A stretch of DNA of 20,243 nt from a virus, in UHGV virus genome UHGV-0098135. One strand, 5' to 3'. The translations under genes were made by a program, and so were the position numbers. This document shows positions 1-20,243 of the stretch, one piece after another (position 1 is the first letter of the stretch; each line of letters starts with the position of its first letter). The notes beneath the pieces were generated by a model. It had not been told where the DNA came from. It was given only the letters and a program-made list of their open reading frames with translations, and searched no databases.

Positions 1-489
1 ATGAGCATAAGAGAGCTAAACCTCACCAAAGAACAGCACGATTGGCTGAATGGCTGGCTTGAACTGTGGGGCGCATGGGTTTATTCAGGTCGTCTGGAAA
101 AGCGCATGAGCAGCGTAATAGCGAAGTTCATGGAGAGCGTAGAGCCGGGAAGAGTTATGACAAGGCCAATGTGCAATGATGATGATGGAATGTTGATTTC
201 TCAGGTCGTCGATTCCGTCATGTGCATTGACAAGAAAGCCTTTGGCATCCTCCTCAGCTACTACGCTCATGGATCTTCCAAGCATGCCATTGCATCTTAC
301 TATCATCGTGTCGCAAGACCTCGCAAGATGTTATGCCGGGGCGGCGGGCGTATTCAAAAACCATCGCTCGCAACCTGTCGCCGGGAAGTTGACGAAATCC
401 TCAATGCTTCGTTGTTTATGATTTACCCAGTTCTGGATAGTGCGTTTAAAAACCGGAAACGTGTAGAGAAAATTAAACATGTAGCATAG
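1..489 (+). CDS. Putative late-gene antiterminator (Q-like / P22 gene 23 position); ORF may continue upstream of the window
   Basis: ATG at 1, TAG stop at 487-489, 162 codons. It sits directly upstream of a promoter/terminator-like leader and the holin-endolysin-Rz cassette, which is the canonical slot of the late antiterminator in lambdoid and P22-like phages. Function is by synteny only; I do not recognise a diagnostic motif. Confidence 0.45.
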   Translation: MSIRELNLTKEQHDWLNGWLELWGAWVYSGRLEKRMSSVIAKFMESVEPGRVMTRPMCNDDDGMLISQVVDSVMCIDKKAFGILLSYYAHGSSKHAIASYYHRVARPRKMLCRGGGRIQKPSLATCRREVDEILNASLFMIYPVLDSAFKNRKRVEKIKHVA

Positions 490-495
490 AACGTG

Positions 496-524
496 TTGAC
501 ATCATTGAGCAAATGAGCAACACT
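496..524 (+). promoter_or_regulatory. Candidate late promoter (PR'-like): -35 TTGACA at 496-501, 17-nt spacer, weak -10 AACACT at 519-524
   Basis: Perfect -35 hexamer located 7 nt after the Q-like stop; the -10 is poor, so this is a positional call by analogy with lambda PR' downstream of Q. Confidence 0.25.
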
Positions 525-534
525 ATTCGCATAA

Positions 535-577
535 GCTGCCGTTAGTGACTCTTAAGTTGCAACGGTGGCTTTTTTTA
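535..577 (+). terminator. Candidate intrinsic terminator (tR'-like) of a short leader transcript
   Basis: Imperfect hairpin with 5' arm 535-543 pairing with 3' arm 561-569 (9 bp including two G-U pairs; further pairing inside the loop), followed directly by TTTTTTT at 571-577. Confidence 0.4.
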
Positions 578-580
578 TTT

Positions 581-655
581 GGGTCAGTCGTATAAAGGTC
601 ATTACGGAAGGCTGTTAACCTTCTTATCGTGGTTCGAGTCCACGCTGTCCCGCCA
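581..655 (+). tRNA. tRNA-like gene, anticodon GTT (Asn) by hand folding; slightly degenerate
   Basis: Hand-folded cloverleaf of 75 nt. Acceptor 581-587 pairs with 645-651 (6 of 7, one T-T mismatch); D-arm 590-605 with a GG-containing loop; anticodon stem 607-611/619-623 (GAAGG/CCTTC, perfect) with loop CTGTTAA; T-arm CGTGG-TTCGAGT-CCACG at 628-644; discriminator G, then encoded CCA at 653-655. Confidence 0.5.
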
Positions 656-660
656 AACAT

Positions 661-736
661 GCTGGTTTAGCTCCAATGGTAGAGCGGTCGCCTTGTAAGC
701 GAATGGGTAGCGGTTCAAGTCCGTTAACCAGCACCA
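661..736 (+). tRNA. tRNA, anticodon TGT (Thr) by hand folding
   Basis: 76-nt cloverleaf. Acceptor GCTGGTT (661-667) pairs perfectly with AACCAGC (726-732); D-arm GCTC-CAATGGTA-GAGC; anticodon loop CTTGTAA at 692-698; T-arm AGCGG-TTCAAGT-CCGTT; discriminator A and CCA at 734-736. The layout parallels E. coli tRNA-Thr as I recall it. Confidence 0.7.
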
Positions 737-822
737 TAACTGAGCCGTAGCCACTGGCTATCCTGAATTCATCAGTGATAGTTACGCTGCGGCCTTCTAC
801 ACATGATCTTCGTGAAAGCGGT

Positions 823-857
823 GGCAAGAGGTTGCGCTAACAACCTCCTGCCATTTT
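823..857 (+). other. Strong stem-loop (GGCA-A-GAGGTTG / CAACCTC-C-TGCC) followed by a short T-tract; possible weak terminator or RNA-processing structure between the tRNAs and the holin gene
   Basis: 11 paired positions with one internal mismatch around a 6-nt loop CGCTAA, followed by ATTTT at 853-857. Seen directly in the sequence. Confidence 0.25.
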
Positions 858-977
858 GCCCGTGCATATCGGTCACGAACAAATCTGATTACTAAACACA
901 GTAGCCTGGATTTGTTCTATCAGTAATCGACCTTATTCCTAATTAAATAGAGCAAATCCCCTTATTGGGGGTAAGAC

Positions 978-1301
978 ATGAAGATGCCAGAAAAACATGA
1001 CCTGTTAGCCGCCATTCTCGCGGCAAAGGAACAAGGCATCGGGGCAATCCTTGCGTTTGCAATGGCGTACCTTCGCGGCAGATATAATGGCGGTGCGTTT
1101 ACAAAAACAGTAATCGACGCAACGATGTGCGCCATTATCGCCTGGTTCATTCGTGACCTTCTCGACTTCGCCGGACTAAGTAGCAATCTCGCTTATATAA
1201 CGAGCGTGTTCATCGGCTACATCGGCACCGATTCGATCGGCAATCTTATTAAAAAACTTGCAGCAAAAAAGGCGGGAGTTGACGATGCAAACCAGTCCTG
1301 A
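978..1301 (+). CDS. Holin, lambda S / P22 gp13 family (class I), with dual-start motif
   Basis: 107-aa product beginning [35 protein letters not shown], which I recognise as lambda S107. Met1-Lys2-Met3 gives the antiholin/holin dual start (second start at 984). Three hydrophobic segments; sits directly upstream of the endolysin. Confidence 0.9.
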
Positions 1302-18101: not shown

Positions 18102-20243
18102 ATGACAGACATTACAGCCAATGTGATCGTATCGATGCCTTCGCAACTTTTCACTATGGCGCGTTCTTTTAAAGCGGTTGCCAATGGCAAAATTTATATC
18201 GGTAAAATTGACACGGACCCCGTAAATCCAGAAAACCAGATTCAGGTTTATGTAGAGAACGAAGATGGCTCTCACGTTCCTGTTTCGCAACCAATCATCA
18301 TTAATGCTGCTGGATATCCGGTATATAACGGACAGATTGCCAAGTTTGTAACTGTGCAAGGTCATTCTATGTCTGTGTACGATGCATATGGATCACAGCA
18401 GTTCTATTTCCCTAATGTGCTGAAGTACGACCCTGATCAATTTGAGATTAGGCTTTCTAATCAAGACGGCGCTGGTCTTGTTGGGATTATGCCATATGGC
18501 ACGGTACAGGATGCCATCAAATGGGTTGTCCCCGAGGTATTCCCCGGAAGTAATGCGTCAGAAAAATTACAGGCAGCTGTAAATTATGCGGTTGCAAACA
18601 AAACGAGAGTTGTAGCATCAGGTGTGTACGATGTAACGGCCCCCGTCACCATCCCAGGAGACATCATTATCGATGCTTCTACTGGAGAATTTACCTTCAA
18701 TGGCATTGATTATATTTTCCATCCGCTTGGCGCAAAATCAGTAGAGATTATCGGTGGTAAGTTCACCGCAAATGCATACCACACCCAGCGTCCTCAGGTA
18801 ATTTTCAATGATTACCCTGATGGGCTGGCGAATTTGCCAACGCGAGTGGTGATAAAAGATATGCAATGCTTTAACTGCGGTGTTGGCTACATCATGGTTA
18901 ACTGTCAGGACCCAACCAGCGTACATGTCTCAGTTGATAATAACTACTGCAAGACTGATGACAACACAGATCAGTATATCTCTGATGCAGGAATGTCAGG
19001 TGAACATGGTGAGGTATATCCATATCTGATGATTCTTGGCAACACGACTGCATCCGTCGACATTGGGACGCCTCGCAAGTCAATGTTCCACGTAACGAAT
19101 AACACCTTTGATGTTTTTATGCAGTCAGGTGGTAACTCAGATATTTATAAAATAGGTGGTGCAACAACAGGAGGAATTTCTACATCCAACAGATTTATTA
19201 ACCGTAACACAGAAGCAGCCTGTGAAGTTGATACCTTTACTGGTGGTCTTGAAAGTGTTTTTGATAATAACACGCTTTGGAACGTGTCCATTAAGGTTAT
19301 GACACTAGGGATTAGTGGCGGCCCAAGGATTGGTCTTGGAGGTAGAAGTTCAGTTAGTAATAACGTCATGCATTTTGAGAAAAATCCACTTAATGATTTT
19401 GGAATATGGTTAAGAACATCACTGGTAAATGTATGTAACAATGTTATTTATTATGTTGGATCTGATAACCCCTCAGAGCAACGTATATTTAACGGAATTT
19501 CAGGGCGAAAATTAGATAATAATAACAATGGATTTGGTGGTTATTGGTGTGCTGGTAATAACGTATCCAACAACATAATTCAAATTATTACAGGTGAAGT
19601 TGACAAATCTGTTAGAGTGCAATGCATCGATCCTACTGATTTCGCTGGGAGCGTTTTTAATGGAAATTGTCTTTTTGGTGGTAATGGTATGGTGATAGAT
19701 GCAAGACCTGAAAGAAATAGAAATGTCTGGAGTGGTAATTATATAAGCTCTGGTCTATTTTCTGGTGAGAATATATGGAGAATGAATTCCGCATTCGTTG
19801 GCGGAAGTAATTATATTGGAAATTCTTACGATAACTCTGTTCGTGGTCCACATCTTTTAAGAAAGGAAATACCAGCTCAACAAGATGGGAGTATAATAAG
19901 AATTACATTGGATTATGCGATAAATAATGGATACGCTTCAGACAGATGTCTTTATCTCTTAATGGTAAAAGTTAATGGTGGGATTAAAAATAACTATCAG
20001 ACATTTGTTGTCTCTTCTGGAGCTCACGATGCGCAAGATCTAAAGCCAGCAATAGACGAAAGAATAAACCCAAACACAACTGACAACAATTTAAAACAAA
20101 TATCATTTAGAGCTGGTTATACAGGTTCTAGTGGGCTAATTGTTTTGCAGGCAAGGGGTAATTATTATTCATCAGGAAATCCACCGACATCTATAGAATA
20201 TTCTATTATACCGTTAACAGCAAACTTCCCCATGGCATTTTAA
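18102..20243 (+). CDS. Tailspike protein: conserved P22/HK620/Sf6-type head-binding N-terminal domain fused to a divergent beta-helix-like receptor-binding module
   Basis: 713 aa, ATG preceded by GGAG, TAA at 20241-20243. The first ~110 aa (MTDITANVIVSMPSQLFTMARSFKAVANGKIYIGKIDTDPVNPENQIQVYVENEDGSHVPVSQPIIINAAGYPVYNGQIAKFVTVQGHSM...LKYDPDQF) match the recalled HK620/Sf6/P22 tailspike head-binding domain. The remainder is rich in Asn, Gly and Cys, with repetitive short strands typical of right-handed beta-helices. Confidence 0.9.
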   Translation: MTDITANVIVSMPSQLFTMARSFKAVANGKIYIGKIDTDPVNPENQIQVYVENEDGSHVPVSQPIIINAAGYPVYNGQIAKFVTVQGHSMSVYDAYGSQQFYFPNVLKYDPDQFEIRLSNQDGAGLVGIMPYGTVQDAIKWVVPEVFPGSNASEKLQAAVNYAVANKTRVVASGVYDVTAPVTIPGDIIIDASTGEFTFNGIDYIFHPLGAKSVEIIGGKFTANAYHTQRPQVIFNDYPDGLANLPTRVVIKDMQCFNCGVGYIMVNCQDPTSVHVSVDNNYCKTDDNTDQYISDAGMSGEHGEVYPYLMILGNTTASVDIGTPRKSMFHVTNNTFDVFMQSGGNSDIYKIGGATTGGISTSNRFINRNTEAACEVDTFTGGLESVFDNNTLWNVSIKVMTLGISGGPRIGLGGRSSVSNNVMHFEKNPLNDFGIWLRTSLVNVCNNVIYYVGSDNPSEQRIFNGISGRKLDNNNNGFGGYWCAGNNVSNNIIQIITGEVDKSVRVQCIDPTDFAGSVFNGNCLFGGNGMVIDARPERNRNVWSGNYISSGLFSGENIWRMNSAFVGGSNYIGNSYDNSVRGPHLLRKEIPAQQDGSIIRITLDYAINNGYASDRCLYLLMVKVNGGIKNNYQTFVVSSGAHDAQDLKPAIDERINPNTTDNNLKQISFRAGYTGSSGLIVLQARGNYYSSGNPPTSIEYSIIPLTANFPMAF

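Follow-up and report, generated by a model that had tools for sequence, protein, structure and literature searches.

A known lambdoid tRNA-Asn/tRNA-Thr cassette in the late leader of a P22-like Escherichia coli phage and its probable role in keeping ACA decoding going when host tRNAs are cleaved

Why does a P22-like phage of Escherichia coli carry two tRNA genes between its antiterminator gene and its holin gene? The stretch of DNA analysed here (the window, 20,243 bp) represents the late region of an E. coli phage that is P22-like (Lederbergvirus-like) and has JEP4, phiv205-1, E212 and CUS-3 as its closest relatives; at most 74% of it is covered by any complete E. coli genome or phage record. 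A preliminary description of this DNA had reported two adjacent tRNAs—GTT (Asn) and UGU (Thr), each with an encoded CCA—in the late-operon leader and had proposed that the tRNA-Asn was matched to an Asn-rich, AT-rich tailspike.

The tRNAs themselves were readily confirmed. When the whole window was searched with ARAGORN, exactly two tRNA genes were found, both on the plus strand, and Rfam matches supported both calls:

581–655, plus strand: tRNA-Asn(GUU) gene, anticodon gtt (ARAGORN; Rfam RF00005, 55.3 bits)
656–660, plus strand: spacer of 5 nt, AACAT, between tRNA-Asn and tRNA-Thr
661–736, plus strand: tRNA-Thr(UGU) gene, anticodon tgt (ARAGORN; Rfam RF00005, 61.2 bits)

Both RF00005 matches run over model positions 1–71 of 71 and score far above the gathering score of 29, which disposes of the concern that one might be a pseudogene or the other fall below threshold; E-values, computed for the whole window, were 1e-9 for tRNA-Asn and 3e-11 for tRNA-Thr. 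Comparison of positions 480–990 with all Rfam families at E ≤ 1 gave no match besides these two. Single-sequence minimum free energy folding produced a cloverleaf-like structure for tRNA-Asn and a non-cloverleaf structure for tRNA-Thr, with weak z-scores; as such folding is uninformative for tRNAs, we relied on the covariance model.

Both genes encode CCA and retain the core bases of a tRNA (U8, A14, G18 G19, U33, the T-loop GTTCRA and the 3′ CCA). The imperfect acceptor and D stems ascribed to tRNA-Asn are real and correspond to two non-canonical pairs in the cmscan alignment, U4-U69 and U13-U22; its anticodon stem is GAAGG/CCUUC, its loop CUGUUAA and its 3′ end CCCG-CCA, as in host asnT. The tRNA-Thr, with ends GCUGGUU...AACCAGC-A-CCA, had been called a clean Thr(UGU)-type tRNA. 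It is certainly high-scoring, but not entirely clean: its anticodon arm reads GUCGC-CUUGUAA-GCGAA, and the stem begins at its top with a G27-A43 mismatch, next to a U28-A42 pair; this mismatch is the functionally interesting feature. The E. coli asparaginyl-tRNA synthetase recognises G34, U35, U36 and the discriminator G73, and the threonyl-tRNA synthetase recognises G1-C72, C2-G71, G35 and U36. The window tRNA-Asn has all of the former and the tRNA-Thr all of the latter, so that each is predicted to be charged with its cognate amino acid.

The pair lies between the Q-like gene and the holin gene, just as first described, in the following setting:

1–489, plus strand: Q antiterminator gene of the phage 21 type, 162 aa, 159/162 aa identical to phage 21 Q (98%)
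496–538, plus strand: late promoter pR′ and its control elements of the Q21 type (placed from the curated annotation of phage 21 and legible in the window sequence itself)
496–501, plus strand: pR′ −35 element, TTGACA (phage 21 record)
504–519, plus strand: Q-binding elements, ATTGAGCA/AATGAGCA (phage 21 record)
519–524, plus strand: pR′ −10 element (phage 21 record)
531, plus strand: transcription start (phage 21 record)
532–538, plus strand: sigma-dependent pause element (phage 21 record)
533–580, plus strand: tR′ intrinsic terminator, a hairpin (533–571) followed by a U7AUUU tract (annotated in phage 21 and Sf6)
737–977, plus strand: highly structured, conserved leader from the end of the cassette to the holin start
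978–1301, plus strand: lambda-family holin gene, the first protein-coding gene of the late operon (open reading frame; homologues annotated as holin in Sf6, JEP4 and HK446)

Q is annotated as an antiterminator in OL657228, and the phage 21 annotation transfers directly because window and phage 21 do not differ at a single base between the end of Q and the tRNAs. A scan of positions 400–1100 for consensus promoters and terminators returned nothing; its rules recognise neither the curated pR′ nor a hairpin as long as that of tR′, and both elements were therefore placed from the curated phage 21 annotation together with folding. For the tR′ hairpin, folding gave −20.2 kcal/mol (z = −6.1; 0/200 shuffles as stable), and its U-tract ends at the base just before the first of tRNA-Asn. 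The tRNAs thus span +51 to +206 of the late transcript, beyond tR′. Downstream, the 737–977 leader folds at −86.1 kcal/mol, against −56.8 ± 5.1 kcal/mol for shuffles (z = −5.75), and is 90–100% conserved in 55 distinct relatives, which are too alike for covariation to be assessed. This leader is common to JEP4 and Sf6, and as JEP4 has no tRNAs, its occurrence is not tied to the cassette.

Genes for tRNAs occupy this point in other lambdoid phages too, as the preliminary description had noted. Stx2 phage 933W has ileZ-argN-argO between Q/pR′ and the first late genes, which we take to be the same lambdoid slot. The tRNAs of Stx phages read the rare codons AUA, AGA and AGG, usually explained as codon supply, and we know of no demonstrated link between them and a nuclease. 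Phages L and ST64T use the slot too, with a similarly accessory, mosaic character, but their cargo is Asn(GUU) plus Leu(UAA), so that the partner anticodon differs (PMC8022706).

The pair in the window is not new: it is the known tRNA-Asn(GUU)/tRNA-Thr(UGU) cassette of the phage 21/Sf6 type, annotated for decades. For the phage 21 pair, the phage 21 record and the SfI paper of 2013 cite Guo, Kainz & Roberts (1991; PMID 1704887). The SfI paper itself reports GUU and UGU tRNAs in tandem downstream of Q, with reference to phage 21, Sf6, ST64T and PS3 (PMC3636060); in the epsilon34 paper the pair is indicated in prophages of Salmonella, and the Sf6 record (AF547987) notes a likeness to phage 21. 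Positions 480–980 are matched by 175 phage records, many of which annotate tRNA-Asn and tRNA-Thr there, among them Sf6, phage 21, SfI, BTP1, SPN9CC, Kapi1 and mEp506. The window tRNA-Asn is identical to the phage 21, Sf6 and HK446 alleles (75/75), and the tRNA-Thr differs from them at one position of 76 (75/76 identical to phage 21 tRNA-Thr21, Sf6 and HK446), having G26 in place of A26, outside the anticodon arm. G26 is a common minor allele, found in at least 14 viral contigs. Like the pairs of phage 21, Sf6, SfI and HK446, that of the window has the order Asn-Thr, a 5-nt spacer (AATAT in HK446) and a position just past tR′ and ahead of the lysis genes, and with phage 21 it also shares the type of Q, pR′ and tR′. 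It departs from the phage 21 and Sf6 cassettes in the A26G change in tRNA-Thr and in being joined to virion genes that are P22-like and to a tailspike module that is rare.

The cassette is widespread and mobile. It occurs in 369/5,426 complete E. coli genomes, and a scan of one genome per species recovered the exact junction only in Escherichia species, in Shimwellia and in two short contigs from metagenome-assembled genomes assigned to Segatella copri and Collinsella, probably phage contigs that were binned in error. Viral contigs bearing this Asn allele numbered 120, with the Asn and Thr genes paired in 105; among the 120, the cassette follows a tR′ of either the Q21 or the lambda type, and the junction always reads ...TTTTTTATT(T) followed directly by GGG. 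Carriers include podo-, sipho- and myovirus-type phages. The siphovirus HK446 has it behind a lambda-type Q and pR′, and in enteropathogenic E. coli E2348/69 an identical cassette (100% match) belongs to a myovirus-type prophage whose Q is different and which has an intervening HNH gene. JEP4, by contrast, has late genes about 96% identical to those of the window, with the same Q21, pR′, tR′ and downstream leader, but lacks the cassette: where the window has the stretch between the 5′ end of tRNA-Asn and the CCA of tRNA-Thr, JEP4 has instead about 190 bp of unrelated sequence with no tRNA, and the exchange covers precisely that stretch. From this variety of carriers and the exchange in JEP4, we conclude that the pair is an accessory mosaic module. 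We also considered whether it might compensate for a host tRNA disrupted by integration and rejected this: the cassette lies away from the attachment site, and the one related prophage examined, that of an O178:H19 strain, adjoins a gene for tRNA-Arg, not one for tRNA-Thr(UGU).

Mosaic boundaries that fall exactly at the ends of the tRNA pair might suggest that these genes serve mainly in RNA processing or recombination—for instance, through RNase P cleavage that defines the 5′ end of late mRNA or as hot spots for mosaic exchange—with decoding incidental or decaying. Some contigs do contain a chimera of phage tRNA-Thr and host thrU, which points to recombination through the tRNA, and the two stem mismatches in tRNA-Asn could be read as decay. 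Such an account sits badly, however, with scores far above threshold, with intact identity elements and tertiary-contact bases and with extreme conservation: 89/118 copies of tRNA-Asn in viral contigs are identical, every phage-type tRNA-Thr allele in those contigs retains the G27-A43 mismatch, and five tRNA-Thr copies have exchanged G5-C68 for U5-A68, the sole clear compensatory pair in copies that are otherwise nearly identical. The late operon of JEP4 works without the cassette, and in experiments cells are rescued by the Thr allele, which decodes ACA (PMC12445682; 10.64898/2026.07.10.737580). We therefore regard a mainly structural or recombinational role as very improbable; conservation, the compensatory change, the retained mismatches and the identity elements instead suggest that the tRNA genes are under selection for function.

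If the tRNAs work in translation, codon usage should bear on what they are for. The counts cover 5,567 codons from 16 window late genes, 14,832 from 42 annotated K-12 genes and those of 15 P22 late genes, P22 being a phage that lacks tRNAs:

ACA per 1000 codons: window late genes 18.7; K-12 sample 5.4; P22 late genes 13.0
ACA share of Thr codons: window late genes 31.6%; K-12 sample 10.2%; P22 late genes 21.9%
Asn codons per 1000: window late genes 51.4; K-12 sample 37.5; P22 late genes 53.3

The expectation that late genes would be enriched for codons read by these tRNAs held for one of the two anticodons. ACA is enriched 3.46-fold over the host sample (Fisher p = 5e-17), ranking fourth by ratio among all codons (after AGG, AGA and AUA) and third by absolute excess, and the link between ACA and tRNA-Thr(UGU) is thus supported. 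Asn codons are at 1.37 times the host sample, and at 1.19 times (44.3 per 1000) once the tailspike is set aside, and their usage resembles that of P22. The SfI paper arrived at the same split verdict, with a bias for ACA and none for Asn (PMC3636060).

The tailspike does have the composition first ascribed to it:

18102–20243, plus strand: tailspike gene, 713 aa, 40% G+C, 9.9% Asn, outside the cassette

Asn codons make up 99 per 1000 of this gene, 58% of them AAU, and the O178:H19 prophage combines this type of tailspike with the cassette. A tRNA-Asn carried to support translation of the tailspike is nonetheless hard to reconcile with most of what we found. When structural genes are weighted by established P22 virion copy numbers, coat accounts for 61% of Asn demand and scaffold for 17%, and the tailspike for only 9.9%, while P22 manages the same Asn usage with no tRNAs at all. 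The cassette is also found in phage 21, HK446, SfI and the E2348/69 prophage, none of which has a P22-type tailspike: identical tRNA-Asn genes occur in phages that lack the tailspike, and the sequence does not vary among carriers with very different tail genes. JEP4, with nearly the same late genes, does without the cassette. Finally, the receptor-binding part of the tailspike, which is 71.5% identical in amino acid sequence to the tail fibre of phage swi2, occurs in 6/5,426 E. coli genomes, which makes the cassette (369/5,426) more than 60 times as widespread. We give the match between tRNA-Asn and tailspike very little chance of being right.

Codon supplementation at large, in which the tRNAs top up the host pool for codons over-used in late genes and have nothing to do with defence nucleases, is a stronger candidate. 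ACA has the third-largest absolute codon excess, and host tRNA-Thr(UGU) comes from one gene only. The same ACA bias recurs in SfI (PMC3636060), and in the coat gene of phage L 24/25 Asn codons are AAC (PMC8022706). Against this, Asn codons are hardly enriched outside the tailspike, and tRNA-Asn has four host genes; P22 copes with 13 ACA per 1000 codons and JEP4 with nearly the same late genes; and AGG, AGA and AUA, all more enriched than ACA, have no tRNAs provided for them. Supply alone is also difficult to square with experiments on host nucleases.

The OLD protein of prophage P2 is a lethal Toprim tRNase: from host tRNA-Thr(UGU), encoded by thrU, it excises the anticodon arm, with cuts at CNG motifs that are paired with each other in positions 28–30 and 40–42; host tRNA-Asn(GUU) is a slower substrate (PMC12445682, NAR 2025). 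Phage tRNA-Thr(UGU) genes rescue cells from P2 OLD, tRNA-Thr21 of phage 21 among them, and resistance requires alteration of the CNG motif plus a shortened anticodon stem: tRNA-Thr21 has C28U/G42A and a shorter stem and decodes ACA (PMC12445682). According to an independent bioRxiv preprint of July 2026 (10.64898/2026.07.10.737580), the tRNA-Thr(UGU) of HK446 is a strong counter-defence that restores plating of OLD-sensitive phages, acting by replacing the host tRNA and not by inhibiting OLD. HK446 is described there as encoding a single tRNA, but it carries the same two-tRNA cassette with its tRNA-Asn unannotated; the authors offer as an alternative that its tRNA may reflect a temperate lifestyle. 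OLD was also found to deplete Gly(UCC), fMet, Val and Pro tRNAs, and Asn(GUU) is not among the tRNAs depleted more than 2-fold (10.64898/2026.07.10.737580). Rescue by a lone tRNA-Thr is partial, and lambda was not rescued in one study (PMC12445682; 10.64898/2026.07.10.737580). The tRNA-Thr genes of T4, Bas32 and Bas33 likewise act against P2 OLD, whereas extra host thrU gives little or no protection (PMC12445682; 10.64898/2026.07.10.737580). As phage alleles protect where extra thrU fails, sequence matters and not just dose.

A second nuclease, AriB, the effector of PARIS, has Lys(UUU) as its main target, tRNA-Thr(UGU) as a major target and also cleaves tRNA-Asn(GUU); the tRNA-Lys, tRNA-Thr and tRNA-Asn of phage T5 together rescue cells from it (PMC11464382, PMC12409363). 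Resistance to AriB, as defined on tRNA-Lys, comes from changes around the 40/41 cut site, notably at U39 and position 41 (PMC12409363).

Against this background, we compared the anticodon arms of the host, window and T5 tRNAs, all six of which have A37:

Host thrU: positions 28–30/40–42 CUG/CAG, paired CNG present, U at position 39, stem of 5 pairs
Host asnT: CGG/CCG, paired CNG present, U at position 39, stem of 5 pairs
Window tRNA-Thr (arm identical to tRNA-Thr21): UCG/CGA, no paired CNG, G at position 39, 4 pairs with the G27-A43 mismatch
Window tRNA-Asn: AAG/CUU, no paired CNG, C at position 39, stem of 5 pairs
T5 tRNA-Thr: UUG/CAU, no paired CNG, G at position 39, 4 pairs with one mismatch
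T5 tRNA-Asn: CAU/UUG, no paired CNG, G at position 39, 3 pairs with two mismatches

The window tRNA-Thr has both features associated with OLD resistance, an altered CNG and a stem shortened to 4 pairs. Its anticodon stem is also the part that has diverged most from thrU, with 8/10 positions different as against 19/66 elsewhere (p = 0.003) and 0/7 in the loop, a pattern of changed stem and unchanged loop that tells against codon supplementation. For tRNA-Asn, 7/10 anticodon stem positions differ from the host, no more than in its other stems (p = 0.47), and one of the two OLD-resistance features is present: the CNG is altered and the stem keeps all 5 pairs. At the positions of the AriB site, the window tRNA-Thr has G39/G41 where the host has U39/A41, and the tRNA-Asn has C39/U41 where the host has U39/C41; if the determinants defined on tRNA-Lys carry over to these tRNAs, both might be expected to withstand AriB.

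The nuclease-resistant tRNAs of T5, T4, Bas32 and Bas33 share with the cassette the mechanism of replacing a cleaved host tRNA. Like the cassette tRNAs, the Thr and Asn tRNAs of T5 have UGU and GUU anticodons, keep the host loops and have stems without a paired CNG and U39; sequence identity between the T5 and cassette tRNAs is about 62–64%. T5, however, has more than 20 tRNAs, Lys(UUU) included, under their own promoters, whereas the cassette consists of two, lacks Lys(UUU), lies behind a Q-controlled terminator and is found in temperate phages.

Taking these lines of evidence together, we think it unlikely that the tRNAs serve codon supplementation and nothing else, and probable that the pair is a lambdoid cassette that keeps ACA and AAY decoding going, with tRNA-Thr as a nuclease-resistant replacement for thrU and tRNA-Asn likely to act likewise. 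As a small accessory module, the cassette moves among the lambdoid phages of Enterobacteriaceae, always directly after tR′. Transcription would start at the Q21-type pR′ and, in the absence of Q, end at tR′, immediately ahead of tRNA-Asn. Q would let RNA polymerase read through and thereby put both tRNAs at the extreme 5′ end of the late transcript, from which host tRNA-processing enzymes would presumably excise them, their CCA being already encoded. Q-dependent expression and processing of the cassette in this phage would follow from this arrangement. For the related tRNAs of phage L, excision from late mRNA as opposed to transcription from their own promoter was left undecided (PMC8022706), and a literature search for expression of the cassette in its native position found nothing relevant.

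Once released, the tRNAs would sustain decoding of ACA, and of AAC and AAU, during late protein synthesis. [quoted passage not shown] These roles reinforce each other because ACA-rich late genes heighten sensitivity to the loss of thrU. For the phage 21 and HK446 alleles, the function of tRNA-Thr has already been shown experimentally in the literature, and we have high confidence in the gene as a nuclease-resistant, ACA-supplying replacement for thrU, made at the start of late transcription. The window allele has G26, and its predicted resistance to OLD draws on published results for A26 alleles with an identical anticodon arm. The tRNA-Asn would most likely play the same replacement part for a secondary target of OLD and AriB, judging from the loss of CNG and U39 in its stem.

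A rarer three-tRNA variant was also seen, comprising tRNA-Asn, a chimeric, thrU-like tRNA-Thr with a broken anticodon stem (ACUGA/UCAUC) and tRNA-Gly(UCC), whose host counterpart OLD also attacks. It looks like the same selection acting independently.

The broader proposition that the whole cassette, tRNA-Asn included, is a compact kit against Toprim tRNases of the OLD/PARIS type is one that we find plausible but would stop short of favouring; the three-tRNA variant speaks in its favour. Among the remaining targets of PARIS and OLD—Lys(UUU), Gly(UCC), fMet, Val and Pro—none has a tRNA in the cassette.

As a discovery, the present analysis carries little weight; its value lies in correction, for the account in which the tRNAs are matched to the codons of the tailspike fails. 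Were the whole cassette a counter-defence kit, about 7% of E. coli genomes would carry a prophage-borne, Q-gated counter-defence module. On the better-supported reading, the tRNAs that temperate lambdoid phages keep in their late leader are spares resistant to nucleases.

Nine of the 120 viral contigs carrying the tRNA-Asn allele of the window hold a three-tRNA variant of the cassette, in the order tRNA-Asn, chimeric tRNA-Thr(UGU) and tRNA-Gly(UCC):

Contigs L016, L037, L082, L083, L093 and L111 (examples): three-tRNA variant; in L016 the cassette begins ~26 nt before the match at 1160.

The tRNA-Asn is the same as in the two-tRNA cassette. The chimeric tRNA-Thr is phage-like at positions 1–25 and resembles host thrU at positions 26–76, and the tRNA-Gly differs from host glyT at four bases, including A38G. 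The host thrU anticodon arm is retained in L111; the other eight variant contigs bear a UCAGU to UCAUC change, through which the 3′ CNG motif and two stem pairs are lost, and ARAGORN made no call for the chimeric Thr gene bearing this change. Reported targets of OLD, the Toprim tRNase of prophage P2, include tRNA-Gly(UCC) (bioRxiv 10.64898/2026.07.10.737580).

The two-tRNA form also occurs in phage HK446, where the GenBank record (JQ086372) annotates neither gene:

JQ086372 711–785: tRNA-Asn of HK446.
JQ086372 791–866: tRNA-Thr of HK446.

The exact Asn–Thr junction was recovered, too, from two short genome contigs, L134 and L137, placed in metagenome-assembled genomes of Segatella copri and Collinsella; these are almost certainly enterobacterial phage contigs that have been mis-binned.

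At the tRNA slot, JEP4 instead carries ~190 bp of unrelated DNA that contains neither a tRNA nor an annotated gene:

JEP4 (L005) ~715–905: alternative insert, equivalent to 581–738 of the window.

The prophage of E. coli E2348/69 (L006, at 19440–19952) has an HNH endonuclease gene between Q and an identical tRNA cassette and in this respect resembles T5, where HNH endonuclease genes are interspersed among tRNA genes; this arrangement may have a bearing on how tRNA modules move.

Downstream of the cassette lies a strongly folded leader, which is present even in the tRNA-less JEP4:

Window 737–977: leader, from the end of tRNA-Thr to the start of the holin gene.

Its predicted folding energy is −86.1 kcal/mol, compared with −56.8 kcal/mol for shuffled sequences (z = −5.75), and it includes a terminator-like hairpin at ~823–852, followed by AUUUUG. 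Conservation is 90–100% across 55 distinct relatives, among which variation is too small for a covariation test. The 3′ end of the leader is probably the counterpart of the region upstream of the lambda S gene, which contains a dual-start control structure.

At the far end of the window, the tailspike gene includes a receptor-binding part of low G+C content:

Window 18450–20243: receptor-binding part of the tailspike.

This part has a G+C content of 40%, compared with ~50% in the remaining late region, and is rare: among 5,426 complete E. coli genomes, only six have it, with DNA identities of 80–91%. Among phages, the top match is a siphovirus protein, the vB_EcoS_swi2 tail fibre (71.5% amino-acid identity). 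These features indicate that the receptor-binding part is a recently exchanged module common to different virion types.
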